The notes under the pieces were generated by a model, which saw only the letters and a list, made by a program, of their open reading frames with translations, had not been told where the DNA came from and did not search any database. A DNA stretch of 64,000 nucleotides, taken from positions 14,495-78,494 of the forward strand of contig JAHJRD010000093.1 of the NCBI GenBank assembly GCA_018830945.1, given 5' to 3'. The stretch comes from Nanobdellota archaeon. Lineage in GTDB: Archaea; Nanobdellota; Nanobdellia; SCGC-AAA011-G17; GW2011-AR17. The translations under genes were made by a program, and so were the position numbers. This document shows, in pieces, positions 318-64,000 of the stretch (position 1 is its first letter; each line of letters begins with the position of its first letter).

Positions 318-1265
318 ATGAGATACTCAAAGCAAACCCTTGTAAAGCAGATTGGGGCTGAAAACCAGAAAAAGATTGAGGCTGCAAGAGTTGTTATTGT
401 TGGGGTTGGAGCAACTGGCAGCTCTTCTGCTGAGATGCTTGCCCGCGCAGGCGTTGGAAACTTAGTTCTTATTGACAGGGATATTGTTGAATTGACTAAT
501 TTGCAAAGGCAGTCCTTGTTTACAGAAGCGGATATTGGAAAGCCCAAGGCAATAGCTGCAAAAGAGGCATTGCAAAAGATTAACAGCAGTGTAAACATAA
601 CAGCTTTTCCTAATGATTTGGATTATGACAATGTTAACCTGCTTGAAGCTGACTTGATACTTGACTGCACTGATAACTTATTTACAAGGTTTTTGATTAA
701 TGATTATTGCAAGAAGAATAAAAAGCCGTGGATTTATTCAGCTGTTGTCGGGGTTCAAGGCATGACAATGAATTTCCTGCCTTCTTCAAAAGTTTGCTTT
801 AACTGCATGTTCTCCCTTGTTGAAGGCATTGAGACATGCGAGACAGCAGGCATATTAAACACAGTTCCGACTGCTGTTACTGCGCTGCAAGTTACTGAAG
901 CATTCAAGATTCTCACAGCACAGAAAGCTAGGAAAAAGCTTTTGCACATTGACCTGTGGAAAGGCGCATTTGAAGAAATCACAGTAAAAGCAGACAGGAA
1001 GTGCAAAGCATGTAAAGGTGAATATGAGTATCTTGACGGGAAAAAACAGGAGATTATAAAGTTTTGCGGCTCAAGCACATTCCAAATGAAAGGCAAGTTT
1101 GATTATGAAGAATTAAAAAGAAAGCTTAATATGGTTGGCAAGGTTGTTGACATGGGAATCTGCTTCAAGTTCAGCTCAATGATAATATTCCCTGACAGGG
1201 TCCTGATAAAAGCCCAGAATGAGCAGGACGCCAAGGTATTGTATTCGCAGGTTGTTGGGAATTAG
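318..1265 (+). CDS. ThiF/MoeB/UbaA-family E1-like adenylyltransferase
   Basis: Rossmann motif VVIVGVGATGS, the DRD..NLQRQ adenylation region, and two CxxC pairs (CFNC..., CKACKG) typical of the E1-like zinc site. About 100 aa of C-terminal extension with no rhodanese domain. Confidence 0.75.
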   Translation: MRYSKQTLVKQIGAENQKKIEAARVVIVGVGATGSSSAEMLARAGVGNLVLIDRDIVELTNLQRQSLFTEADIGKPKAIAAKEALQKINSSVNITAFPNDLDYDNVNLLEADLILDCTDNLFTRFLINDYCKKNKKPWIYSAVVGVQGMTMNFLPSSKVCFNCMFSLVEGIETCETAGILNTVPTAVTALQVTEAFKILTAQKARKKLLHIDLWKGAFEEITVKADRKCKACKGEYEYLDGKKQEIIKFCGSSTFQMKGKFDYEELKRKLNMVGKVVDMGICFKFSSMIIFPDRVLIKAQNEQDAKVLYSQVVGN

Positions 1266-4138: not shown

Positions 4139-4594
4139 TTATTTGCCTCCGACTGCATCTTCAACATCATCAACAAGCCTTCCAGCAAGATTATGTGTTT
4201 CTGCAAGCAGAGCCCTTCTTTCCTGGGGTGGATTGCCGCAGCCTCTTGAGCTTGGCTTCGGCGAATGGTTCCCGCCTTCAACAACCCTTCCGCTCGTAGT
4301 AATTCTAATCTGCCTTCCGTAATTCGGCTGCACAACTATGATGTACTGCACGCCCTGCGGACTTGTATAATTCCCGCTCTTCGGCGCAAGAACATGCTCA
4401 GGCTTGACAGAATGTTCCAGCGTTCTGTTTCTTGAACGCCTTCTGCCCGGGTTCCGCTGGCTTCCTGAATGATTCTGCCCTGCAGCATCCATTGGCGCAT
4501 TGTAATTGTTTTCGTCTTTTCCGCAGCCGTACTTGCATCCTGTAGAAAGTGCAAGCGCGACCACAATTGGTGTTATATATCTTTCGTAGCTCAT
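4139..4594 (-). CDS. putative lipoprotein
   Basis: Start at MSYERYITPIVVALALSTGC with a lipobox-like LSTGC. Strong SD (GGAGGGG) upstream. Confidence 0.4.
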   Translation of the reverse strand: MSYERYITPIVVALALSTGCKYGCGKDENNYNAPMDAAGQNHSGSQRNPGRRRSRNRTLEHSVKPEHVLAPKSGNYTSPQGVQYIIVVQPNYGRQIRITTSGRVVEGGNHSPKPSSRGCGNPPQERRALLAETHNLAGRLVDDVEDAVGGK

Positions 4595-4595
4595 T

Positions 4596-4940
4596 TTACA
4601 TCCCCTCCTGCGTTGCAGGAATTCCATATATTCCGTTTTCATCGCATGACAGCTTTTGAAGGCTTCCGTCAGGCAGCCTCACGCTTGGGCCTCTTTCAGC
4701 AAACCCCTCGCATGTCAGCTCAAGCTTGTTCAGCTCAGCAATTTGCCTGGATTGTTCTCTGGATTCTTGCCCAGATAGAAGAAGACCGCCTGCACCAAGC
4801 CCTGCTATGAGTATAGTATAAGCTGCTGCTTTTCTAAATGGCATATACAGTTTGCCGCCAATAGAATACAATCCGTCCCTCTCTGGTGTTGCTACCTCTG
4901 TCTTCACTTCCGGCTTATCGCCCTTCTTGTTGGATTCCAT
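4596..4940 (-). CDS. membrane hypothetical protein
   Basis: Central TM helix (AAAYTILIAGLGAGGLLL). SD AGGAGGGG upstream. Confidence 0.4.
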   Translation of the reverse strand: MESNKKGDKPEVKTEVATPERDGLYSIGGKLYMPFRKAAAYTILIAGLGAGGLLLSGQESREQSRQIAELNKLELTCEGFAERGPSVRLPDGSLQKLSCDENGIYGIPATQEGM

Positions 4941-5700: not shown

Positions 5701-6222
5701 TTTCACAAAACCATATAAGATTATTCCGTTAAGCACATTGTTTTGCAGCGGCGAGGCGAGATTCCCTATTTCAGGCTCAAAAATAACGTGGATTTCCCTG
5801 CCCAATGATTTTTCAAATTTTGCCAAATCCAGCTTTGCTTCATGCGCTTCAACAAAAAGGTCTATATCGCTCCCTTTCCGGTAATCGCCTTTTGCGCAGC
5901 TTCCGTAAAGGATTATGCAAGAGGGCAGCGCTTTTTCCCATACATATTGTATTAGCCCTGACTGGCTTATCTGAAATACAATCTCATTCTTCTTATAAAA
6001 GAGGTAATGCTTGTTTTCAGTGTTTGCGCGGTACGTAGGATAAAGGGTTGTCTTGTTGATTGTTACAAGTTCAAGTTTAACAAAAGGAGTTATATGGTTA
6101 AGCACAGTCGCATGGTTCTGCTTCAGCCTCCTTGCTATTTCCCTTATGGAAAAGCCTGCATCAGGCTCTTCTATAAACAGCTTCAGCATCCTGTAGTCCG
6201 TATTTTCAAAAATCTTATGCAT
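5686..6222 (-). CDS. wHTH-fused minimal nucleotidyltransferase (MNT, Pol-beta superfamily)
   Basis: GS-x9-13-DxD motif (GSCAKGDYRKGSDIDL) with an N-terminal winged-helix region. Confidence 0.7.
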   Translation of the reverse strand: MHKIFENTDYRMLKLFIEEPDAGFSIREIARRLKQNHATVLNHITPFVKLELVTINKTTLYPTYRANTENKHYLFYKKNEIVFQISQSGLIQYVWEKALPSCIILYGSCAKGDYRKGSDIDLFVEAHEAKLDLAKFEKSLGREIHVIFEPEIGNLASPLQNNVLNGIILYGFVKLDRL

Positions 6223-6319
6223 TTTAATTGGTTAATAAAATAACCACCTGGTTAGAATAATAACCATAAGTTAATAAGCTTTGCGGAAGCTGCTTTCCCT
6301 CGTAAAAGCCGCCTTCCAA

Positions 6320-6859
6320 TTACTGCAACAGCCCCTCAACCTTGGTTATAAACTCATCCGCATCTGCAAACGCAGACAAAGCATTCTGCCTTGCAATAGC
6401 AGGAGTCGCATCATACTGCGCAGATTCCCTGTTTGTTTTTGCCTGCGCGAGCTTTGTTATCATCGCCTCGCTTAATGAATAAGCATTTGAAAGGCTGTGC
6501 AGGTGCTTTGCATCAAGCTTCTTCTTAAGCACATAGGCATGTTCAAGCACTGCAAGCGTTGCTGCATGGCTTCTTGACTTGAATGAGATATTTGCGAGAG
6601 CAGCCAGTGCAGAAACATACATTGAATAATAAGCTATTATGACAACCCAGTCGTATGCCTCAAAATCCGAAGGCATGCTTAACATTTCCTTAAAATCATC
6701 TTTATTGGAAATATCCATAAGAAAGGCAGCAAGCGCAAAATTCTTTCTTGCTTTCTTAAGGAAAGGCTGTTTCAGCCTTATGAATGAAACATCTTTTTCC
6801 AGCTGTTCTTTCTTGAAATATATGCTGATTCTTCTCTTGAGCATATATTCCTTTTTCAT
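6320..6859 (-). CDS. HEPN-like domain protein
   Basis: Helical ~180 aa overlapping the upstream MNT by 4 nt. Conserved YY..Y and R-x-S-A-Q-Y region. Confidence 0.5.
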   Translation of the reverse strand: MKKEYMLKRRISIYFKKEQLEKDVSFIRLKQPFLKKARKNFALAAFLMDISNKDDFKEMLSMPSDFEAYDWVVIIAYYSMYVSALAALANISFKSRSHAATLAVLEHAYVLKKKLDAKHLHSLSNAYSLSEAMITKLAQAKTNRESAQYDATPAIARQNALSAFADADEFITKVEGLLQ

Positions 6860-33989: not shown

Positions 33990-34541
33990 ATGGCAGACAC
34001 AGCATTTGGAGTTGTAATTGAATTTCTTGAGAAACTTGGATTTTTTGATGTAATCCTTCCGTTCCTGCTTGTATTCACAATTGTATTCGGCATACTTGAA
34101 AAAACAAGGATATTCGGCGTTGAAAAGATTGGGGACAAGGATTACCCAAAGAAAAGCATAAACTCAATGGTTGCATTTGCAATAGCCTTTTTCACAGTGG
34201 CTGCAAAGCAGGTGGTAACATCACTGCAAGTCTCTTTGCCTAATGTAGCATTAGTGCTTATCATAGTTGTCTGCTTTTTAATGCTGGCAGGCTCATTCAT
34301 GGGAGACAAGGAGTTCAGCCTTGAGGGAAGGAAAGGATGGGTTGCATTCCTCACAATTGTGATGTTCATAGCAGTCATCTTGATTTTCCTTAATTCATTC
34401 GGCTGGCTTGAGCCGATTACAGGCTATATAATGCAGCATACAGATACAGTCCTTATTCCGTTTGTATTAATCGCAGTAATTGTGGGGGCAATGTTCTATG
34501 TTATAGGAAGAGGCCCGAAGGAGAAGAAGGAGGAGAAGTAA
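33990..34541 (+). CDS. 4-TM membrane protein, tandem paralog 1 of 3
   Basis: Shares the ILPFLLVFTIVFGILEK block with the next two genes. Confidence 0.45.
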   Translation: MADTAFGVVIEFLEKLGFFDVILPFLLVFTIVFGILEKTRIFGVEKIGDKDYPKKSINSMVAFAIAFFTVAAKQVVTSLQVSLPNVALVLIIVVCFLMLAGSFMGDKEFSLEGRKGWVAFLTIVMFIAVILIFLNSFGWLEPITGYIMQHTDTVLIPFVLIAVIVGAMFYVIGRGPKEKKEEK

Positions 34542-35138
34542 ATGGTATTTGAAAATGTTGATTTCACTGACATGATAACTACATTGGAGGACATGGGGTT
34601 TTACCAGGTAATACTTCCTTTCATGCTTGTCTTCACAATAATGTTTGCAATTCTTCAAAAGGTAAAGCTGTTTGGCGCAGAAACTAAAAATATTAATGTG
34701 GTTGTTGCTGTAATCATAGCATTCTTTTTCGTCAGGGTTACGTCAATTGTTGCAATCATCAACCAGTTTCTGCCTAAAGTTTCAATGATAGTGCTTGTAT
34801 TATTGATGTTCATGCTGGTATTGGGCATATTCGGCTCAGGCGAGTCAACAGGATGGAGTGGATGGCCTTTCTTTGTAGGCATGGTTGGAGCTGTGTTAGG
34901 AATTGTATGGGCTCTTGTCTCATCATTCCCAGGAATGGGCGGCTCTGGCGGAAGCCTTCTTCCAAGCTGGCTGGTTATCAGCTCGCAGGACAAGGCAATA
35001 CTTTTGGCAGTCGGCATTTTCGTGCTGCTTCTGTGGGTATTCAAGGACAAGAAAGATAACGAGCCTTCATTTATGGGAAAGTTTAAAGAAGGCACAAAAC
35101 CTGAATTCTTTGGGTTTGGCGGGGGAGGCAAGAAGTAG
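34542..35138 (+). CDS. 4-TM membrane protein, tandem paralog 2 of 3
   Basis: VILPFMLVFTIMFAILQKVKLFG, with a Gly-rich C-terminus. Confidence 0.45.
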   Translation: MVFENVDFTDMITTLEDMGFYQVILPFMLVFTIMFAILQKVKLFGAETKNINVVVAVIIAFFFVRVTSIVAIINQFLPKVSMIVLVLLMFMLVLGIFGSGESTGWSGWPFFVGMVGAVLGIVWALVSSFPGMGGSGGSLLPSWLVISSQDKAILLAVGIFVLLLWVFKDKKDNEPSFMGKFKEGTKPEFFGFGGGGKK

Positions 35139-35193
35139 AAATGGTCTGCAAGCGAAGTGAGTGGACCCTCGAACGAAGGGGGACTGAGTAAGA

Positions 35194-35739
35194 ATGGCTT
35201 CAATCATGGATATTGGGCTTTTGGATTATTTTGTGCCTGTGTTCATATTCATCTTCATATTTGCAATACTTTTTGCCCTGCTTGAGAAAGTCAAGGTATT
35301 TGGGGAGAACAAGGGGCTTAATGCACTGATTTCATTTGCAATAGCCTTTCTTTTTGTATTGACTCCTGACTTGCTGGGCGTTGTCAAGATAATGACTCCC
35401 TGGTTTACAATACTGTTTGTGTTTGTCATAATGATTGTTCTATTATTCATGTTTGTCGGCGTTAAAGAAGGTGATATCACAGAGGCATTTACTGAAAAAG
35501 GCATGGTATGGATTATTGTAATCGTATGCCTGATAATCATGATTTATGCCCTGACACAGGTTTACGGCGCGCAGATACAGAACATAACTGTTGACGGGAA
35601 TACGACTGCTGATGCTTCTTCTCCGACAATGACATCGCAGGTTGGAAAGATTCTGTTCCATCCAAGGGTTTTGGGCATGTTGCTACTGCTTCTGATTGCA
35701 GCCCAGGCAGTCAGGTTTCTTGCAGGGCATGCGAAATAG
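35194..35739 (+). CDS. 4-TM membrane protein, tandem paralog 3 of 3
   Basis: FIFIFAILFALLEKVKVFGENKG. Preceded by a family-2 spacer element. Confidence 0.45.
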   Translation: MASIMDIGLLDYFVPVFIFIFIFAILFALLEKVKVFGENKGLNALISFAIAFLFVLTPDLLGVVKIMTPWFTILFVFVIMIVLLFMFVGVKEGDITEAFTEKGMVWIIVIVCLIIMIYALTQVYGAQIQNITVDGNTTADASSPTMTSQVGKILFHPRVLGMLLLLLIAAQAVRFLAGHAK

Positions 35740-56096: not shown

Positions 56097-56183
56097 AATA
56101 GCTTATGATTAGCAAGCGGTTTGCGGCTTTACGCCGCGAACTTGCTTTCTATCAAGGCTATTAAAAACGAGGTACGCTGCTTA

Positions 56184-57068
56184 ATGGCAGAAAAAACGCT
56201 AAACAAGGAAGAGCTTAAATCCAGCATAAGAGAGCTAAGGGAAAAGCTTAATGACTTAAACCAGAAGAAAGAAGAATGGTTTAAGAAGAAGGAAGAGCTG
56301 AAAGCCCAGATTGGGCAGACTATTTCTAAGATTAAGGAAGCAAAAGGACAGAACGACACCCTTAACAAGGACATTTCCGGGTTTAAGAAAAACAGGGATG
56401 AATTTAATACAAAAGTAAAAGAGCTTATTGCAAGGATTAAAGAGCTTAACAAGCAGAAGGAAGACATGCTTGCCAAGGCAAAGTTCCAGGGAAACCCTGC
56501 TGAACTCAAGTTAAGGATGGACAGGCTTGAGGAATCGCTTGAAACACAGGCATATTCTTTTGACAAAGAGAAAAAAATCATGAAGGAGATTAATGGCTTG
56601 AAAAAGCAGTATGATTCAGTTAAGGGTGTTGATGGAATCTTTAAGGAAATAAATGATGTGTCAAGGCAGATAACAGATGCTAAAAAGAAAGGTGATGAGT
56701 TTCATAAAAAATTGCGTGATAATACATCCTCAAACAGGGAAAGCTATGAGCAGTTCATGAAGCTTTCAAAGGACATTGCCAAGTTAAAGAAAACCCAGGA
56801 AGAGGCTTTTAACACATTTATTAAATTTAAACAGGAATACGCAGATGTCAGCAGGGAGCTAAAGGAAAAGCTTGAGGCAATGAGCGGCGTGCATGAGACA
56901 GAGGGCAATGAGCGAAAGGAGCATAGGCGCGATAAAAAAGCAGAGATGTCAAGGCAGCTCAAGAAGAAAGCGCAGGAAGTTGAGGAAAAGTTCAAGAAGA
57001 GCAGGGTTCTTACAACAGAAGACTTGATTACACTGCAGGGCGAGATAGAGGATACTGAGGAGTTCTAA
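56184..57068 (+). CDS. archaeal coiled-coil protein
   Basis: Almost entirely K/E heptad sequence. Start at MAEKTL with GAGGT upstream. Confidence 0.4.
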   Translation: MAEKTLNKEELKSSIRELREKLNDLNQKKEEWFKKKEELKAQIGQTISKIKEAKGQNDTLNKDISGFKKNRDEFNTKVKELIARIKELNKQKEDMLAKAKFQGNPAELKLRMDRLEESLETQAYSFDKEKKIMKEINGLKKQYDSVKGVDGIFKEINDVSRQITDAKKKGDEFHKKLRDNTSSNRESYEQFMKLSKDIAKLKKTQEEAFNTFIKFKQEYADVSRELKEKLEAMSGVHETEGNERKEHRRDKKAEMSRQLKKKAQEVEEKFKKSRVLTTEDLITLQGEIEDTEEF

Positions 57069-57094
57069 GATTGTCTAGCATAAAAAAAGGCGGC

Positions 57095-57109
57095 AAGGGG
57101 ACACCCCTT
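57095..57109. terminator. palindrome AAGGGGACACCCCTT
   Basis: Perfect 6-bp stem just after a plus-strand stop codon. The same GGGG-ACA-CCCC core recurs at ~58969. Confidence 0.35.
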
Positions 57110-57175
57110 GAAACCCCACGTTGATGCATATCTTTAACAGCAACATTTAAGAATACATTATTCATTACAAGCATC

Positions 57176-58072
57176 ATGGATAAATTGGATAATTTTTTGC
57201 AGACATTAAAGCAATTGCCTGAGGATGAACAAAAAATCATTCAATCCAAAAATATTGAAGAATTGGATGCTGCAGAAAGGGAACACCAAGAATTTCAAAA
57301 CTCATTTGTTCGGGGTAATTGTTATCTATGCCATTTGCCTCTTACAGCTTTTGACATTTCTAAATCTTGTTTACATTGGCTACTTAACCCAGAAGGATTT
57401 AAAAAGAGATATTTTGAGTTTATTTATGCGCATTATAGCTATTTTCAGATAGAATCATATCTTCGATGGGTTGCCAATCAAGAAATACCACTCCAAAATA
57501 TAAATGCTTTATCACAAGAAGACACTAAAAACAAGCCCATTGAATTAACAATATGCTATAAGTCTCTTGAATGGTCATTCTCTTGTTCAGAGTCTGATTT
57601 GCAAGGTCATAAGGCATCTAGATATGGGCAGTTTTCGCACTATCATTTTCAAATGAGAATAGCAGAAAAACCATTTATTAATTATACTGATTTTCATATA
57701 CCTTTCACAGAGGGGGATCTTTTCAAACTAGGAATTATCCGCAAGAATTACCCTGCACTGCGGCATGTATTCCCTTTTGGTGATGGTATGAAAGAAGCTC
57801 TTAATGCGGAACCGGATAAATTATTAGAAAATATGCAGCTTACAACAGATGAGAATAAATCCTCTTTTCATCTTCAAACTGTAGTTACTACAGAACCGGG
57901 TAAACCTATATCTATTGATAAAATTGAAGCAATGATAAAAGAAAGTCAAAAGACGAGAAAGCCTCTTGCTGCATTAGCACATAAGTACATTAATGACGCT
58001 TCCGTTAAGGTAATGATTTCTCCAGGAGAAAGTGTACCTGAAATTGCAAAAAGAACCATTAGGCATCGTTAA
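57176..58072 (+). CDS. hypothetical protein in low-GC islet
   Basis: Noticeably more AT-rich than its flanks. Contains a CYLCH..C..H motif. Confidence 0.45.
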   Translation: MDKLDNFLQTLKQLPEDEQKIIQSKNIEELDAAEREHQEFQNSFVRGNCYLCHLPLTAFDISKSCLHWLLNPEGFKKRYFEFIYAHYSYFQIESYLRWVANQEIPLQNINALSQEDTKNKPIELTICYKSLEWSFSCSESDLQGHKASRYGQFSHYHFQMRIAEKPFINYTDFHIPFTEGDLFKLGIIRKNYPALRHVFPFGDGMKEALNAEPDKLLENMQLTTDENKSSFHLQTVVTTEPGKPISIDKIEAMIKESQKTRKPLAALAHKYINDASVKVMISPGESVPEIAKRTIRHR

Positions 58073-58091
58073 TACTTATTCTTATCTTATT

Positions 58092-58925
58092 TTAGGGACA
58101 CTCGGGTCCGACACATATCTTACAATGTGCACAATTAGCAGTATGTGAATTAAACCAATCATTTGTGCTAGAATCTCCGTCATCACACTTAGGAATATGT
58201 TCACAAGTTTGATTCTCTGCATCATATCTATCATAGGTTGTAATATCGCCATCGTCACATGTTGAAGGACAATCTGTATTTATTTCTCCAGGATTCTTAT
58301 TTGGGAAATTACATTCCCCTACACCAGCGCTACCCGCACTTACTGAAGAACCTCCACAGATTAATTCTCCGGTTGAAGGAATTTCTATAGAACTATATTC
58401 TGTTGGCATGCCCTGATTTAAATCCAAACAGTCTGCTTCGTTGTCATCACAATATCCATCATTTTGACAGGGTTTTATTGGGCGATTAGAACATGAAAAT
58501 TCTAAGCCCTCTATCATTTCCTGTCCGCCCCATCCTTCACAGTTATCAGAAGTACAAATGTTATTATCATTACATGAGATAAAGGTGCCATCTTTACATG
58601 TAGATGTTTTATTTAAACAATTATTTTGTACTGGCTCATGAGTACATTTATAGTCTGTTTTTTTTGAGCATATATCTTGTGTGCAAGGATCACCATCATC
58701 TTCACATGTTTGATTGCAAGTGCCACACTTAATCGGACAACAATAGGATTCTATCACATCTAAGTAAGGAACCGCACAATCGTCGGGAGCTGAACACAAA
58801 TATCCGTTAAATGCTGAGCACCTATTTTCTTTTACCATCTCTCTTGCTCGTGCTTCCTGTTCAGGTGTGCAGCCGACTACTGCAAGAAGTAAAATACCTA
58901 AGATTATTGCGATATATGCTTTCAT
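58092..58925 (-). CDS. Cys-rich repeat lipoprotein (bacterial-type lipobox LLAVVGC)
   Basis: Start at MKAYIAIILGILLLAVVGC. Repeated D-x-C-T-x-D-x-C ... C-x-H units (DGDPCTQDICS, DNNICTSDNCEG, etc.). Confidence 0.5.
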   Translation of the reverse strand: MKAYIAIILGILLLAVVGCTPEQEARAREMVKENRCSAFNGYLCSAPDDCAVPYLDVIESYCCPIKCGTCNQTCEDDGDPCTQDICSKKTDYKCTHEPVQNNCLNKTSTCKDGTFISCNDNNICTSDNCEGWGGQEMIEGLEFSCSNRPIKPCQNDGYCDDNEADCLDLNQGMPTEYSSIEIPSTGELICGGSSVSAGSAGVGECNFPNKNPGEINTDCPSTCDDGDITTYDRYDAENQTCEHIPKCDDGDSSTNDWFNSHTANCAHCKICVGPECP

Positions 58926-58968
58926 ATAGCTTCTAAGAGGGTATTGGATTATAAGCTTTTCGTGGGGT

Positions 58969-58984
58969 TTGGGGTACACCCCAA
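58969..58984. terminator. palindrome TTGGGGTACACCCCAA
   Basis: Lies ~18 nt downstream of the lspA stop on the minus strand. Same core as ~57095. Confidence 0.35.
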
Positions 58985-59000
58985 CTGCCTTCTTTGCTGC

Positions 59001-59417
59001 TTACTTTCCCTTAACAAGCGCATACACAATCAAAGCAGCGCCAACCACATTAAAAGAATCAGCGAGATTAAAGTTAGGCCATATCCATACTGCAATAAAA
59101 TCCCTTACATAGCCGTAGAATATCCTGTCTATTAAGTTTCCAAAAGTGCCTGCAAGGATTAAAGTGAAAGCCGCCTTTATTAATTTGTTTTTTTCTCTTG
59201 CATAGAAATAAGCCACCCCTATCAAAACAATTACGCTTAAAGCTATGAAAAGCCAGCCAAAGCCCTGCATTATCCCGAATGCAGCTCCCCTGTTTTCAGC
59301 GTATTGAACGCCTATAGAACCTAACATGTATATTTTCCCTGTAAATAAAAGCTTTGAAACCTGGTCAAGAATGATTAATGCAATAACCACAAATACAGCT
59401 TTAATGGCTTTTTTCAT
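59001..59417 (-). CDS. lspA: lipoprotein signal peptidase (signal peptidase II)
   Basis: Four TM helices with the LspA boxes ENRGAAFG, GNLIDR and FNLADS. Confidence 0.75.
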   Translation of the reverse strand: MKKAIKAVFVVIALIILDQVSKLLFTGKIYMLGSIGVQYAENRGAAFGIMQGFGWLFIALSVIVLIGVAYFYAREKNKLIKAAFTLILAGTFGNLIDRIFYGYVRDFIAVWIWPNFNLADSFNVVGAALIVYALVKGK

Positions 59418-59510: not shown

Positions 59511-62165
59511 ATGAAAAAAAGAGTGATTTGGCTATTTGGATTAATGCTAATTCTCTTTGCAGCTAATGCTTTTGCGCTTGAAATTAATTTTAGAGATAAA
59601 AGCTACCCAGGATACTTGTTTATCCCTCTTTTGCTTATTGCAGTAATCTGGGTTGTAATAGTTACAATGTGGCTGTTCAGGCATTTCAAGGGATTGTCGC
59701 TTTTCTTTTTTAATGTAGGCAAGTTTGTCTCGCAATTTGGGATAGGAGCAGGATTAAAAAAGCTAAAGGAAAAAATAAAGGAAAGCGGCAAAAAAGATGG
59801 AGAGGAAACTGTTGTCAAGAAGGCTGAAATAAAGGAGGAAGAGGCAAAGCGCGATTTGACAGGATTTGTTGCAAAAGTTGATGCACTTGAAAAAAAGCTT
59901 GAGAAAACAAAAGATACCAATGAAGTTCTTAAGGAATTTGGCCCCATGGTCAAGGATTTCCTTACCGCATTATTAAATATCCACTATGAGTTCACTGACG
60001 CTGAGATTGCCGAGGTGCTTGAGAAAAAGAAAAAGCATCTTGTTGATTTTGCGCAGAAGATTTCTGACATGAAGTTCAGCGGCAAAAAAGTGTCCAGGAA
60101 GGAAATTGAAACAAGTGTAAAGGAGTTCAAGAGCATTGTCCACAAATATGTTGAAACAGGATGGAAGCCAAAAAAGGTTGCAAGGGGCATTATTGAACGC
60201 CTGGCTGAGCAGGACAAGAGAATACTCACGAATGTAAAACAGTATGTTGATTTCCTCAAGCACGAAAACAGGAAAAAGCAGATTGAATCCCTGCTTGCTG
60301 ATGAAGAGGAGATACTTAAGAGAAACGTCCGCTCAATGAAGCATACATACAACAGGATACTGAAGATGTATGTCCAGCTTACGCCTAATGACAAGGCTGT
60401 TGTCTATCCGCAGCTTGTTGAGTTTTACAACAATGCAAACAAGGCAATATTCTCAAGCGTTTACGGCAAGAAAAGCAAGAAAGAGCTTGAATATTTTGTA
60501 AGGGAATTGAAAAGGCTTAAAGAGATGCCGAAAAGAGAGCCGTGGCTGCTGAGGATGAAGCACAGGATTTCAATGCCTTCAAAAGAGCTCAAGATCAAGG
60601 CGCCAAAAGCGCCTGCTGTGAAAGCTAATAAGAAAGTAAGGGAAAAAGTAAAGCTTCCATCAATAAAGCCGCTGTTTGTAAAGCTTGTCAAGGTGTTCAG
60701 GCCGTCGGAAATAAGCGAAAAAAGAGCAAAGAGAATGTTCAAGCCAAAGAAGGCTGAGAAAATAAAGCTTAAAGAGCCTACATTAAAGCCATTGCTTGAA
60801 AAGATAAGCAGTGTCAAGGAGATTGGAGAATCATTCAAGGCATCGTTCAGGGAAAGGTTTGGCAAGAAAATACCAACAATCACAGAAAAGCTCATCGCGC
60901 CAAAGCCGCCAGAGAGCAGCGAAAAAGTATTTGAAAAGCAAGTTCCAAAGCCAGGCAAAACAATGCCTGAAGCAGGGGCAATAGCAGAAATAGGCAGGCT
61001 GCTTGAGCAGACTCAGACAATAGAAAAAGTGAATTATGCAGAAAAGCTCAGGCAGAAGATGTCAGAGGGATGGAACCTGATTGCTGTTTCCAACTTCAAG
61101 GCATTTGACGAGCTGTATGAAAAAATAAAGATTGATTATGTAAACCTTAGCAAGGAAGAGCAAACAGTGCTTGGACCGAAGATAATAACATTGCATGACG
61201 CTTCAATCAATGCAAGGACGCAGAATACAAGGAATGCGCTTTTGGAAAAAGAAAAGGCAGTGGAGGGCGCTTTAATAAAGCGCGCAGAAGCAAAGGAAAA
61301 AAGAAAAACACAGACAGAAGCCCATAAAATCCTTTCTGCCATAGAAGCAGAGTTTGACGAGGAAGCGGAGCTGAGAAAGGAGGAAGATGAGCTGCTAAGG
61401 CTTAAGGAGGAGAGAAATAGAAGGCATGAGTATGATTTAAGGAAAAAAGAGCAGCATAAGGTGCAGGCAGGGCTTAAGAAAATTGACTGGCTCTTCAGGG
61501 AAAGGGCAAGGCTTGACAGGCAGCAGGAGAAAAAGAGAAAAGAGGAAGAGGAAGTAAGATTCCAGGAAGAGCGCAGAAGAATCCGGCTTGAGGCTGAAAA
61601 AAAGAAAAAAGAGCAGGCTGCTGCAAAGCAGGAGATTGCATATATTGACAGGATGTTCATGGAGAAGGCTGAGGCTGAAAGAAAAGCAGAAAGGCAAAGG
61701 AGAGATGAGGAAAAGCTGAGGCTTGAGGCGCTGCAGCAGGTTAAGCAAGAGAACACTGCAAGGCAGCGCAGCGAATGGCTTATCAAGAGGGAAGAGGAAA
61801 GAAAAAGAAAAGATATTGAAAGCAGAAAGAAAGAGACTGAAAAGTTCAGGCTTCAAAAGGAAAGAGAGATAAAGGCTGCAATGCGCGAGACGAGCCTTCC
61901 GGCGCTTGAATCCCTTGAGGATGAATTGCGCAGGCGGATAAGTGAAATAAGCAAATCTTCTGCGCCTGGCGAGAACATGAAAGAAAGGGTTATGAAGGAA
62001 GCTGAGATTGTCAGGAGAGAGGCTGAGATTAAAAGGAGCATTGAGGAAAGGAAGAGAAAGCTGCTTGCGCAGAAAAAGAGAAAGAAAGAGGATGTTGTTT
62101 CTCCATTAGAGCAGGAGCAGCTGAAATTATTATTGGAATTGGAAAGGATAAAAGAAGGATTATAA
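59511..62165 (+). CDS. signal-peptide/TM-anchored protein with ~750-aa K/E/R-rich charged helical region
   Basis: Signal peptide plus one TM helix, then extreme charged low-complexity sequence (…RKKEQHKVQAGLKK…EKKRKEEEEVRFQEERRRIRLEAEKKKKEQ…). Confidence 0.5.
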   Translation: MKKRVIWLFGLMLILFAANAFALEINFRDKSYPGYLFIPLLLIAVIWVVIVTMWLFRHFKGLSLFFFNVGKFVSQFGIGAGLKKLKEKIKESGKKDGEETVVKKAEIKEEEAKRDLTGFVAKVDALEKKLEKTKDTNEVLKEFGPMVKDFLTALLNIHYEFTDAEIAEVLEKKKKHLVDFAQKISDMKFSGKKVSRKEIETSVKEFKSIVHKYVETGWKPKKVARGIIERLAEQDKRILTNVKQYVDFLKHENRKKQIESLLADEEEILKRNVRSMKHTYNRILKMYVQLTPNDKAVVYPQLVEFYNNANKAIFSSVYGKKSKKELEYFVRELKRLKEMPKREPWLLRMKHRISMPSKELKIKAPKAPAVKANKKVREKVKLPSIKPLFVKLVKVFRPSEISEKRAKRMFKPKKAEKIKLKEPTLKPLLEKISSVKEIGESFKASFRERFGKKIPTITEKLIAPKPPESSEKVFEKQVPKPGKTMPEAGAIAEIGRLLEQTQTIEKVNYAEKLRQKMSEGWNLIAVSNFKAFDELYEKIKIDYVNLSKEEQTVLGPKIITLHDASINARTQNTRNALLEKEKAVEGALIKRAEAKEKRKTQTEAHKILSAIEAEFDEEAELRKEEDELLRLKEERNRRHEYDLRKKEQHKVQAGLKKIDWLFRERARLDRQQEKKRKEEEEVRFQEERRRIRLEAEKKKKEQAAAKQEIAYIDRMFMEKAEAERKAERQRRDEEKLRLEALQQVKQENTARQRSEWLIKREEERKRKDIESRKKETEKFRLQKEREIKAAMRETSLPALESLEDELRRRISEISKSSAPGENMKERVMKEAEIVRREAEIKRSIEERKRKLLAQKKRKKEDVVSPLEQEQLKLLLELERIKEGL

Positions 62166-62188: not shown

Positions 62189-63208
62189 TTATTCTGATTT
62201 CTTAGGGCTTCTTGGCGCCCTTTTTGCTCTTTTGGCGCGGCGTTCGTCTTTTTCCTTTTCGCGCTGCTGGTTTGCCTCTATTGAAGCCCAGCGTTTTGCA
62301 TTAATCTTTGCAAAGTTCACAGGATTTCTTATCTTTGAGCATAAAGGCAATGGGCTGCAGAATTGTAATTCTTTATAATATTCAACCTTGTCGCAGTTTG
62401 GCGGCAAAACAATTATTTTCTGCTTCTTGTGCCAGTTTATCTGCTCCAGCACATAGTTTTCCCTCAACGGCTCAGAATGGTTATTGTTCCACTCATAAAG
62501 CTTTTTCTCAATATCTTCCCAGCTCCATCCGCAGTGTATGAGGAATTTCAACAAAAGGAACAACGCCCTCTTTTTGCCGTCATCAAGCTTTGAGCTTAGA
62601 ATCTTTTTCATGCACGGCGGGAAGCACTCTTCTTTTACAACAATCTTTTCATCCTCAATGCCTGATGATTTCTTTCTCTCAGCAGCTAAGTTTAATTTAT
62701 CCTCTGCCCTGCCGTCCCTTTTTGCTTTTTTATCCCAGTCAAATGCCTGTATTATTAATGAAGATGCCTCATTCTGCTTTGCAGCTTCCCTGTCAATGAA
62801 TTTTAATACTGGCTTTACTGCAAACGGCTTTGCCTTTTCTTTTTCAAATGTTAAAATCTCATCCTGCTTTATGGGCAAAGAAACCAGTCCTGCCTTTTCA
62901 TGCAATGAGTATGGCGCCCTGAACATGTGCCTGCTTGAAATCAAGACAGTGTCAATGTCAACTATCTTGAAAGGGTCAAAGGAACCGTCCAATATAAGTT
63001 CATCAATTCTTTTCCCTGCTTTTTCCGCTATCTGCGATATATGCTCCTTGCTTAATATTGCTTCTGACAAGTGCCCTTTTATCATGTTTTGGAGGTAAGC
63101 AGCAATCACTCTCAGGCTTTCAGGGAACAGGTCTTTTGTTTTTATGCCGTTGACTTCGTCAGGGAATGCCTCAAAAGGCACTGCAATATGAAACCCCTTG
63201 TTTCCTGA
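62189..63208 (-). CDS. C-extein downstream of an intein junction; provisionally archaeo-eukaryotic primase small subunit (two short PriS-like motifs only) with a Cys-rich C-terminal domain
   Basis: The intein ends at ...LLLHN and the host sequence resumes at S230 (SGNKGFHI). SGNKGFHI resembles PriS motif II and VDIDTVLISSRHMFRAPYSLHEKAGL resembles motif III; these two short stretches are the whole basis for the primase call. The C-terminal Cys-rich stretch (CFPPC...HCGWSWED...NCD...C..C) is unassigned, a PriL-like Fe-S domain being one guess. The protein N-terminus lies beyond the window. Confidence 0.35.
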   Translation of the reverse strand, partial: SGNKGFHIAVPFEAFPDEVNGIKTKDLFPESLRVIAAYLQNMIKGHLSEAILSKEHISQIAEKAGKRIDELILDGSFDPFKIVDIDTVLISSRHMFRAPYSLHEKAGLVSLPIKQDEILTFEKEKAKPFAVKPVLKFIDREAAKQNEASSLIIQAFDWDKKAKRDGRAEDKLNLAAERKKSSGIEDEKIVVKEECFPPCMKKILSSKLDDGKKRALFLLLKFLIHCGWSWEDIEKKLYEWNNNHSEPLRENYVLEQINWHKKQKIIVLPPNCDKVEYYKELQFCSPLPLCSKIRNPVNFAKINAKRWASIEANQQREKEKDERRAKRAKRAPRSPKKSE

Positions 63209-64000
63209 ATTATGCAGGAGAAGAGGATAATAATTCCCAAAAAAAGCCTCTGTTCCTTTAACAGAAATGTCATAAACTTTAGCAGAACTTTTTTTGGTTA
63301 TGGATTTTACTTGTAAAATACCCACATCAGAATCTAATAATAACTCATAATTTGCAATAATCTCCTTTGAATGAGCATCAAATTCATTAGAATTAAATCT
63401 CTTGAACCATTTTATTACATTCCATATTCTTTCTGCATTGGCTCTTTTCTTGCGTAATGTCACCTGTTCAAGGCGATGATAATTAAAAAATTTAGGTTTA
63501 ATTTGCAAATAGACTCTTTTAAGCCCGTCAACTGGAAAGGTCCTATCTCTTGGGAATGGAGAAAATTTATTCCTACCCCTGAAAAATTCCTGTAAATTAA
63601 GCTCAGATTTCGGTATATTGAGTATATAAACAAAACTTCCTTTGAATATATTACCCTGCGGCAGTTTATGGGGCTTATTTTGTTCACAAGAAAGGGAGCA
63701 AGAAATCCCGTTTAATTTACAAAGCCAGAGCAGTTCAGTAATGAGCTTATGCGCAACAGATTTAATAGCGATATGGTATTTGCCCAGCTTATAACCATCG
63801 CCCCTTATATAGCCCTTTAAAAGTTCCATAAAAAGGGGTTTAGGAAGATTCCAAGCAAATTCAGGTATATGCTTATTCTTTTTTTTACCGCACAAATTCT
63901 CAAAAAAAGAAGCCCATTCTTTGGAATGGATTAATATTTGTGTAGAACCAGCATTAGGGTGCCTTATTGAGATATGCCTTTTCGTTACGCTTAAAAGAAG
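63209..64000 (-). mobile_element. intein (LAGLIDADG homing-endonuclease type), C-terminal part; continues past window end
   Basis: Block F/G VYDISV...FGNYYPLLLHN|S, LAGLIDADG-like LLKGYIRGDGY. The reading frame stays open through 64000. Confidence 0.6.

Follow-up and report, generated by a model that had tools for sequence, protein, structure and literature searches.

A signal peptidase II gene of archaeal clade beside a variable slot with a hairpin-flanked lipoprotein gene in a Nanobdellota archaeon

No archaeal homolog of signal peptidase II (SPII, or Lsp) had been identified according to both a 2018 review (PMC6098224) and a 2025 paper (PMC12462473), and the latter names the archaeal lipoprotein signal peptidase as yet to be found. 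The same paper predicts that lipoproteins are prevalent in DPANN archaea and that the lipidation protein AliA is present there, with gaps. Here we describe a locus in a stretch of 64,000 nucleotides (hereafter the window) from a Nanobdellota archaeon (GenBank assembly GCA_018830945.1, contig JAHJRD010000093.1, positions 14,495 to 78,494, forward strand), in which a gene for a bacterial-type signal peptidase II, lspA, stands beside a gene for a Cys-rich lipobox lipoprotein. A preliminary description of this region had remarked that LspA-type processing is unusual for archaea, in agreement with the two publications, and in the open-access literature that our searches found, neither lspA nor signal peptidase II is connected with Woesearchaeota or DPANN archaea. 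The gene label is already known, annotation pipelines naming these archaeal genes "signal peptidase II"; what appears to be new here is the recognition of an archaeal LspA clade and of its linkage to lipoproteins. We consider it likely that the locus is made of three parts with separate histories, namely a resident lspA gene, a lipoprotein gene bracketed by two hairpins, and a separately inserted unit encoding a protein of 298 amino acids (aa). The features in question are, from left to right:

56121-57068, plus strand: gene for a DUF7121 coiled-coil protein (Pfam E=4.7e-11; syntenic in the related contigs L005, L010 and L045), the end of a resident L1-L10-L12-DUF7121 block and the left flank of the slot
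57094-57120, plus strand: left hairpin, type A, CAAGGGG-ACA-CCCCTTG followed by AAACCCCACG (from the sequence, motif searches and a terminator scan)
57119-58085 (about 965 bp), plus strand: self-contained mobile unit, in which an archaeal-type promoter region accompanies the 298-aa open reading frame (ORF), inserted into the interval that separates the type A hairpin from the lipoprotein stop
57176-58072, plus strand: the 298-aa ORF itself, of an uncharacterised family
58092-58925, minus strand: Cys-rich lipoprotein, 277 aa with 31 Cys, signal peptide MKAYIAIILGILLLAVVG followed by C (ORF; lipobox LLAVVG-C)
58949-58954, minus strand: TTATAA, a putative archaeal TATA box in the sequence 24 nt upstream of the lipoprotein ATG
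58961-58984, minus strand: right hairpin, type B, TTGGGG-TGTA-CCCCAA followed by ACCCCACG, between the LspA stop and the lipoprotein promoter
59001-59417, minus strand: lspA, a minimal signal peptidase II of 138 aa (Pfam, structure alignment, synteny and clade)
59511-62165, plus strand: gene for an 884-aa Lys/Glu-rich protein with an N-terminal hydrophobic segment, divergent from lspA and forming the right resident flank

The lspA product matched the Pfam family Peptidase_A8 (PF01252) with E=4.5e-31 and 108.4 bits against a cut-off of 25, bearing out the earlier call of a clear lspA gene next to the lipoprotein gene. It could be aligned to the solved LspA structures 6RYO, 9EMZ and 5DIR over the GNxxDR and FNxAD motifs, and the alignment covered residues 35-176 of 6RYO and ran across the entire membrane core of the solved enzymes. 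A crude hydropathy count gave only two to three membrane segments, a four-helix core being the family expectation. The catalytic Asp residues correspond to D97 in GNLIDR and D120 in FNLAD. Together with D18, N42, N94, N117 and A119, they were unchanged in 18 of 18 archaeal LspA copies and kept in essentially all of 137 aligned sequences; we take these seven to be the residues found critical in bacterial LspA by published mutagenesis and structures. Judged by these motifs, the protein is a genuine Peptidase_A8 member in a minimal form, predicted to be catalytically intact.

The DNA around lspA is archaeal: the window carries ribosomal protein genes for L1, L10/P0 and L12/P1 (54189-56096) as well as SecD/SecF and an archaeal DNA primase. 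With a G+C content at third codon positions (GC3) of 0.367, lspA is ordinary among the roughly 80 ORFs of the window (mean 0.435, standard deviation, SD, 0.056). Its position beside the L1-L10-L12-DUF7121 block, the 884-aa gene or both is kept in four related contigs, which differ in the slot between LspA and DUF7121:

L004: LspA 74% identical, divergent from the homolog of the 884-aa gene
L045: LspA 71% identical, convergent on DUF7121; slot of 2 nt (the two stop codons are 2 nt apart)
L010: LspA 60% identical; gene order L1-L10-L12-DUF7121, AlbA_2 gene, lipoprotein, LspA; slot of 2,388 bp
L005: LspA 52-53% identical; L1-L10-L12-DUF7121 facing LspA, followed by a gene for an unassigned membrane protein with six transmembrane (TM) segments and by the 884-aa homolog; slot of about 430 bp
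Window: slot of 1,932 bp

Homologs of the 884-aa protein, which has no Pfam match, adjoin LspA in L004 (74% identity) and L005 (43%). A scan for LspA restricted to one genome per species returned 15 loci, 14 of them from Woesearchaeota/Nanoarchaeota, including the complete chromosome of archaeon GW2011_AR20 (CP010426); the fifteenth, at 37% identity, belongs to a cyanobacterium. In a neighbour-joining tree of 137 LspA sequences, built on about 130 residues and without support values, the named archaeal copies formed one group except for the most divergent of them, and the named bacteria (Omnitrophica, Riflebacteria, Peregrinibacteria and Peptoniphilus) fell outside that group. Because of its normal GC3, its conserved synteny and its archaeal clade, lspA did not take part in the arrival of the neighbouring islet. 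By the same sequence criteria it is a vertically inherited gene of Woesearchaeota-type DPANN archaea, resident at this locus. An ancient transfer of LspA from a bacterium into this archaeal lineage is plausible.

In many Woesearchaeota, LspA has a neighbourhood that differs from that of the window and consists of conserved genes encoding proteins of about 470-530, 200 and 600-670 aa. This set stands just upstream of LspA in L013, L015, L016, L019, L020 and L023, and downstream of it in L006, L011, L014 and L018; its largest member carries a xylose-isomerase-like TIM barrel (AP_endonuc_2) domain.

Convergent to each other, lspA and DUF7121 enclose a slot that is a hot spot. In L045 it is an empty site, nothing corresponding to window positions 57069-59000 being present there. 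The segment 57100-58999 of the window has a G+C content (GC) of 36.4%, as compared to 41.8% for the whole window, and is the lowest 1.9-kb stretch, about 2.7 SD under the mean with 0.08% of windows lower; the preliminary description was thus right to single out the drop between 57.1 and 59.0 kb but exaggerated it as 30% against the mid-40s. Stretches of 300 bp with at most 33% GC occur at about ten other places in the window. The islet does contain the two genes that had been assigned to it, one of them the Cys-rich lipoprotein with the lipobox LLAVVGC, and both ORFs are present. The 298-aa ORF (GC3 0.247) and the lipoprotein gene (0.24-0.26) have the two lowest GC3 values among the ORFs of the window.

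From these properties it had been proposed that a laterally acquired module, possibly bacterial, brought LspA together with its substrate lipoprotein; we read this as a single recent acquisition, the palindromes at the edges marking the ends of the insertion. Low GC and foreign codons between the palindromes, the absence of the segment from L045 and the fact that LspA is otherwise a bacterial enzyme family are all in line with such an event. However, lspA lies outside the palindromes with a normal GC3, keeps its synteny in the four relatives, L045 with its empty site among them, and groups with homologs found throughout Woesearchaeota; moreover, the homologs of the lipoprotein look archaeal and the 298-aa gene has a history of its own. 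We therefore give the joint arrival of enzyme and substrate hardly any credence. A grouping of LspA with archaeal homologs, which the preliminary description had itself named as an outcome contrary to its proposal, is what both the species scan (14 of 15 loci) and the tree returned. Lateral acquisition of the islet as such kept part of its support: the atypical GC3, the Cys codons described below and the empty site of L045 speak for it, but neither a mobility gene, a tRNA nor direct repeats accompany it. No integrase, transposase or recombinase domain was found in the islet ORFs or in the neighbouring, candidate-sized ORFs that were scanned, no tRNA was found in the window, and the repeats flanking the islet are inverted rather than direct.

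The part of the islet with evident mobility is the 298-aa gene. By blastn, positions 57128-58072 were 86% identical to L001/L002 and positions 57119-58085 were 83% identical to L003, in contexts unrelated to that of the window: a ResIII helicase, an N6/N4 methyltransferase and, upstream, an AlbA_2-type gene in L001/L002, and a tRNA-splicing endonuclease in L003. The copies in those contexts are accompanied neither by the lipoprotein nor by LspA. Since the 298-aa gene occurs alone in unrelated contexts, it does not form a joint module with the lipoprotein gene. Furthermore, its GC3 stays at 0.25-0.28 across hosts whose other genes span 0.22-0.59. We take it to be a mobile unit of a single gene, separate from its neighbours and recently inserted.

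The family to which it belongs is large: a word-seeded search retrieved more than 522 members, and an exhaustive profile search retrieved 420 clusters at 50% identity, all members being about 300 aa long and free of fusions. Residues C49, C52, C65, H67, E132, W133, D141, G144, H145, H155-Y-H157, Q159, M160 and H174 are invariant. Among them, C49, C52, C65 and H67 suggest a zinc knuckle, and E132, D141, H145, H155-Y-H157 and H174 suggest a metal or catalytic cluster; the protein is probably a metal-binding enzyme. It had no match in Pfam, PHROGs, NCBIfam, PADLOC or the sequences of the PDB, and tblastn searches of GenBank phages and PLSDB plasmids gave no match either. In IMG/VR, homologs with 35-41% identity were found as single low-GC genes, with a GC below that of their hosts, next to tail proteins, tape-measure proteins, Ogr-type regulators and integrases. 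P2-like prophages are known to keep anti-phage genes in such accessory regions (PMC9122126), and by analogy of gene neighbourhood the 298-aa protein may act in conflict or defence; against such a role stands the lack of any match to it in PADLOC-DB at E <=0.1. With members in DPANN archaea, in bacteria and in the accessory regions of prophages but no recognised domain or fold, the family is a reasonable candidate for functional screening.

An HUH endonuclease or transposase, as could be read from the H-Y-H motif and from hairpins like those of IS200/IS605, was considered for this protein and set aside, a confident model having no match to a known fold. Upstream of the 298-aa gene in L001 (600-690) and L003 (3125-3200) there is a pair of hairpins, GCAAAGCC-CGCA-GGCTTTGC and CTGAAAACCC-GGA-GGGTTTTCAG, conserved between the two copies with changes that preserve base pairing. 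The first of them resembles the left hairpin of the window in opening with GGCAA(A)G and closing with CTTG. Genes with AlbA_2 (Schlafen-like), HATPase_c_4 and winged-helix domains adjoin the lipoprotein or the 298-aa cassette at L010:6916-8238, L008:3314-4660 and L001:2-256.

The lipoprotein consists of a conserved N-terminal module (N-module) and a variable C-terminal part. A search for its homologs yielded 15; an organism is named for two of them, Nanoarchaeota in both cases, at odds with the bacterial character that the preliminary description had given it. None of the 14 homologs inspected had lost the lipobox Cys or the N-module: the family begins with a lipobox signal peptide followed by CTPEQE and by the Cys-rich module RCxAFNGYLCSAPDDC...YCCPIKCxTCNQSCDD, after which the C-termini vary, some of them being fused to DsbA/Thioredoxin_4. 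On these comparisons the family looks restricted to DPANN archaea rather than bacterial, and it is a fast-diversifying one in which a fixed lipobox and Cys-rich stalk carry changing C-terminal domains. Two tandem genes of L007 (3062-4354 and 4401-4583) share the same lipobox and Cys-rich N-module, which indicates that the family grows by duplication.

In L010, the gene immediately following LspA is the ortholog, whose N-module has 75% identity. At the DNA level, the window and L010 are 78% identical without a break over 58696-59200, a stretch that takes in part of LspA, the intergenic region and part of the lipoprotein gene. The N-module and promoter also occur in unrelated contexts in L007 and L008, at 72-77% DNA identity, and conservation of the region 58929-58970 extends to L010, L007 and L008. 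The TTATAA within it suggests that the lipoprotein has its own archaeal promoter and, since it lies only 24 nt from the ATG, the mRNA would be leaderless. When a metagenome collection was scanned for the conserved 19-mer of this promoter, TTGGATTATAAGCTTTTCG, the six matches obtained were all due to chance, without homology.

How long the lipoprotein gene has been in place can be argued in two ways. Its GC3 is 0.263 in the L010 ortholog and 0.23-0.28 for the family in every context examined, and its odd composition is therefore a property of the family. Its Cys codons are 26 TGT to 5 TGC, as compared to 5 to 70 in eight neighbouring genes. These AT-rich codons may reflect either exchange among lower-GC DPANN lineages or gene-specific selection, which are inseparable here. 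If the second were the whole explanation, the lipoprotein would be an old resident gene with codons shaped by family-specific selection or mutation bias, and the 298-aa gene would be the one foreign gene of the slot; the L010 ortholog is indeed found in the same position with the same low GC3, though the flanking proteins have diverged to 60-72% identity, and the family's GC3 holds irrespective of context. Yet the N-module has 72-77% DNA identity to the lower-GC copies in the unrelated contexts of L007 and L008, which is as high as the 72% of the ribosomal protein genes of the syntenic relative and suggests exchange, and the gene is absent from L045 and L005. We regard such a history, with no lateral transfer of the lipoprotein gene, as unlikely.

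The lipoprotein gene is bracketed by the two hairpins. Their palindromes, GGGGACACCCC (57097-57107) and GGGGTACACCCC (58971-58982), had been reported as nearly identical and as lying at the edges of the islet. They are the sole GGGG-N2-5-CCCC sites in the window, a count which by itself is within chance (0.9 expected; two or more in 23 of 100 shuffles). What sets them apart is that they are the cores of a longer repeat: each precedes, on its respective strand, an identical 9-mer, AACCCCACG, exact copies of which occur in the window at these two sites only, and palindromes and tails together form an inverted repeat of about 25 nt. A search of 516 kb with the whole-element pattern returned four sites, the two of the window and the equivalent two of L010. 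In both genomes, the type A consensus, CAAGGG(G)-loop-(C)CCCTTGAAACCCC[AG]CG, is on the side of the lipoprotein gene remote from LspA, and the type B consensus, TTGGGG-loop-CCCC[AT]AACCCC[AT]CG, comes right after the LspA stop; in L010 these are found at 6694-6716, 55 nt past the lipoprotein stop, and at 5944-5965, respectively. The two types differ by a paired swap of the stem from AA..TT to TT..AA, with pairing retained, and their loops are unlike.

Read on the minus strand, the left hairpin has a 7-bp G+C-rich stem followed by CCGCCTTTTTTT, which contains a run of seven T, and it was listed by the terminator scan; it looks like an intrinsic terminator of the lipoprotein gene. When the hairpin regions were folded one by one as RNA, the z-scores were weak (-0.6 to -2.1), and the hairpins are thus not singled out by thermodynamics alone. 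A dispersed repeat family, such as repeated extragenic palindromes (REP) or miniature inverted-repeat transposable elements (MITE), was rejected, the element having been seen only here in the window and at the equivalent locus of L010. A match to AACCCCTCG at 4702, near another lipobox-like gene, was discarded as well, as it lies inside a coding sequence and has no hairpin. Integron attC sites measure 57-141 bp, have the core sites RYYYAAC and GTTRRRY and lie near an IntI integrase. An integron-like attC was rejected in turn: the elements measure about 25-36 nt, the core consensus was unmatched on reading, and no integrase was found in the ORFs scanned.

These properties bear on another explanation, in which all of 57094-58984, from hairpin to hairpin, moves or recombines as one cassette, with the elements as its terminal inverted repeats, invertase sites or attC-like sites. 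Excision, inversion or exchange would then affect the segment as a whole, and the cassette could acquire additional genes. In its favour, two diverged genomes have retained both the exact 9-mer tail and the hairpin, the stems differing by a paired swap, everything between the stop codons is cleanly missing from L045, and differing mobile-type genes stand by the elements, namely the 298-aa gene in the window and, in L010, an AlbA_2/HATPase_c_4/HTH gene. L010 also has a degenerate third copy of the motif, and hairpins precede the 298-aa gene in L001 and L003. Set against this, neither the islet nor the candidate-sized ORFs scanned contain a recombinase, transposase or integrase, the lipoprotein paralogs of L007 and L008 are without the elements, which occur at this locus only in the 516 kb, no target-site duplication was seen, the elements are far shorter than attC and lack its core sites on reading, and the homology of the window to L010, uninterrupted from LspA to the lipoprotein gene with the element included, fits descent in place. 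A single cassette of this kind is in our estimate improbable. A bolder form of the idea, that the pairs of hairpin and conserved tail AACCCCNCG are recombination sites of an undescribed DPANN system of cassette exchange at a fixed slot on the side of lspA, is a conjecture that we hold to be slightly less probable still, and equally doubtful is the corresponding proposal that its cassettes are single genes and comprise surface lipoproteins, the 298-aa family of bacteria and archaea, and AlbA_2-type genes. If true, such a system would explain why the empty site is clean, why the inverted pair is conserved and why the cargo differs from genome to genome.

We next consider the relation between LspA and lipobox proteins. 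With a fixed lipobox pattern (a signal peptide ending in [LVI][ASTVI][GAS]C), 6 of the 423 ORFs called across 18 archaeal LspA loci were retrieved, and five of these six directly adjoin LspA, in the window, L010, L015 (AR20), L017 and L022, the sixth being 2 kb away. The binomial probability of this adjacency is approximately 1e-4, a value to be read with the reservation that the loci are not phylogenetically independent; the adjacencies are nevertheless spread over three separate groups of the LspA tree (window/L010, L015 and L017/L022). The LspA-adjacent lipobox proteins belong to unrelated families, namely the Cys-rich family, twin-arginine lipoproteins and a small protein. This pattern supports a functional link of LspA to lipobox substrates, and the Cys-rich lipoprotein is likely a substrate of LspA. 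Another window gene, at 4139-4594 on the minus strand, which the preliminary description had listed as a further lipobox protein, encodes a protein that begins with MSYERYITPIVVALALSTGC, where the Cys follows S-T-G instead of [LVI][ASTVI][GAS]; this loose lipobox was not flagged in the census. In L006, whose LspA (6001-6420) falls in the archaeal clade, a homolog of the bacterial lipoprotein intramolecular transacylase Lit (PF07314, E=6e-19) is encoded at 1-577 on the minus strand, about 5.5 kb from LspA, and the contig also has DsbD and thioredoxin-like genes; it may represent a second bacterial-type lipoprotein-modifying enzyme in DPANN archaea.

Put as a course of events, the three-part history that we favour would run as follows. 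The hairpin pair would have bracketed the lipoprotein gene before the window and L010 diverged; later, the 298-aa unit would have been inserted between the lipoprotein stop and the type A hairpin in the lineage of the window, and the AlbA_2/HATPase_c_4/HTH gene beyond the type A hairpin in L010. The far (type A) element would act, at the least, as a terminator-like hairpin of the lipoprotein gene, and LspA would remove the signal peptide of lipobox proteins once their Cys had been lipidated. It is to be noted that several points weigh against this account. The LspA product scored 72.8 with the NCBIfam equivalog model TIGR00077, slightly below the cut-off of 73.95; as the protein is shorter than bacterial enzymes, its specificity may be another one; the grouping of archaeal copies comes from a tree without support values. 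The strongly foreign Cys codons of the lipoprotein fit better with a lateral origin than with simple vertical descent. Its gene is missing from two syntenic relatives, L045 and L005, so that it is not an obligatory partner of LspA. The right hairpin has no T-run on the sense strand of LspA, and a terminator role can therefore cover neither both copies nor the conserved AACCCCNCG tail. Finally, Lgt (PF01790) was found neither among the ten largest membrane proteins of the window nor in the genes called 10 kb upstream, which together with the window make up the approximately 74 kb of the host genome seen; LspA normally depends on a preceding lipidation step.

Three further observations concern other genes. 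At L046:7039-8964, about 1 kb upstream of a gene identical to the first gene of the window (318-1265), a 641-aa RelA/SpoT-type protein is encoded (HD, RelA_SpoT, TGS and ACT domains), and archaea do not usually have a (p)ppGpp synthetase/hydrolase of this long, bifunctional kind. The 568-aa protein encoded at 62189-63895 of the window (minus strand) has weak matches to the domains of the small and large DNA primase subunits as well as a weak intein-splicing match, and may be a fused primase. A tandem of three genes at 33990-35739 (plus strand) specifies similar small proteins, 181-198 aa long and predicted to have 5-7 membrane segments, whose N-termini are alike and which had no significant family match.

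For Woesearchaeota-type DPANN archaea, the conserved bacterial-type LspA is a testable candidate for the missing archaeal lipoprotein signal peptidase in this lineage. It is found on plainly archaeal contigs carrying L1, P0 and P1 genes and in one complete genome, repeatedly beside lipobox proteins, and it raises the question of how a bacterial-type enzyme handles substrates with presumably archaeal lipids.

Comparison with described systems places each part of the locus. The hairpins share with intrinsic terminators and repeated extragenic palindromes a short, G+C-rich, intergenic form just after stop codons; in contrast to these, they constitute one inverted pair with the non-palindromic tail AACCCCNCG and are confined to this locus instead of being dispersed. 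The distant homologs of the 298-aa gene are, like the 'moron' or defence genes of P2-like prophages (PMC9122126), single genes beside prophage genes, and the closest archaeal copies lie near a ResIII helicase, a methyltransferase and an AlbA_2-type gene, whereas the copy of the window is in an archaeal chromosome rather than a prophage and belongs to no PADLOC family. As compared to bacterial LspA (family A8, PF01252; 5DIR from Pseudomonas aeruginosa and 6RYO from Staphylococcus aureus), the archaeal copy is of the same family with the same catalytic motifs. The archaeal clade differs in being shorter (115-145 aa against 150-190), with the TM1-TM2 loop and the last extracellular loop trimmed, and in its archaeal hosts, the clade spanning Woesearchaeota, where the lipid of the substrate would presumably be archaeal. 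An Lgt partner of this LspA, as in the bacterial Lgt-LspA pathway, was not found among the ten largest membrane proteins of the window and the genes called in the 10 kb upstream. With the AliA/AliB lipidation system of Haloferax volcanii (PMC12462473), the locus has in common the class of substrates, proteins with Sec or Tat signal peptides and a lipobox; the signal peptidase of that system has yet to be named, whereas a bacterial-type Lsp is encoded here.

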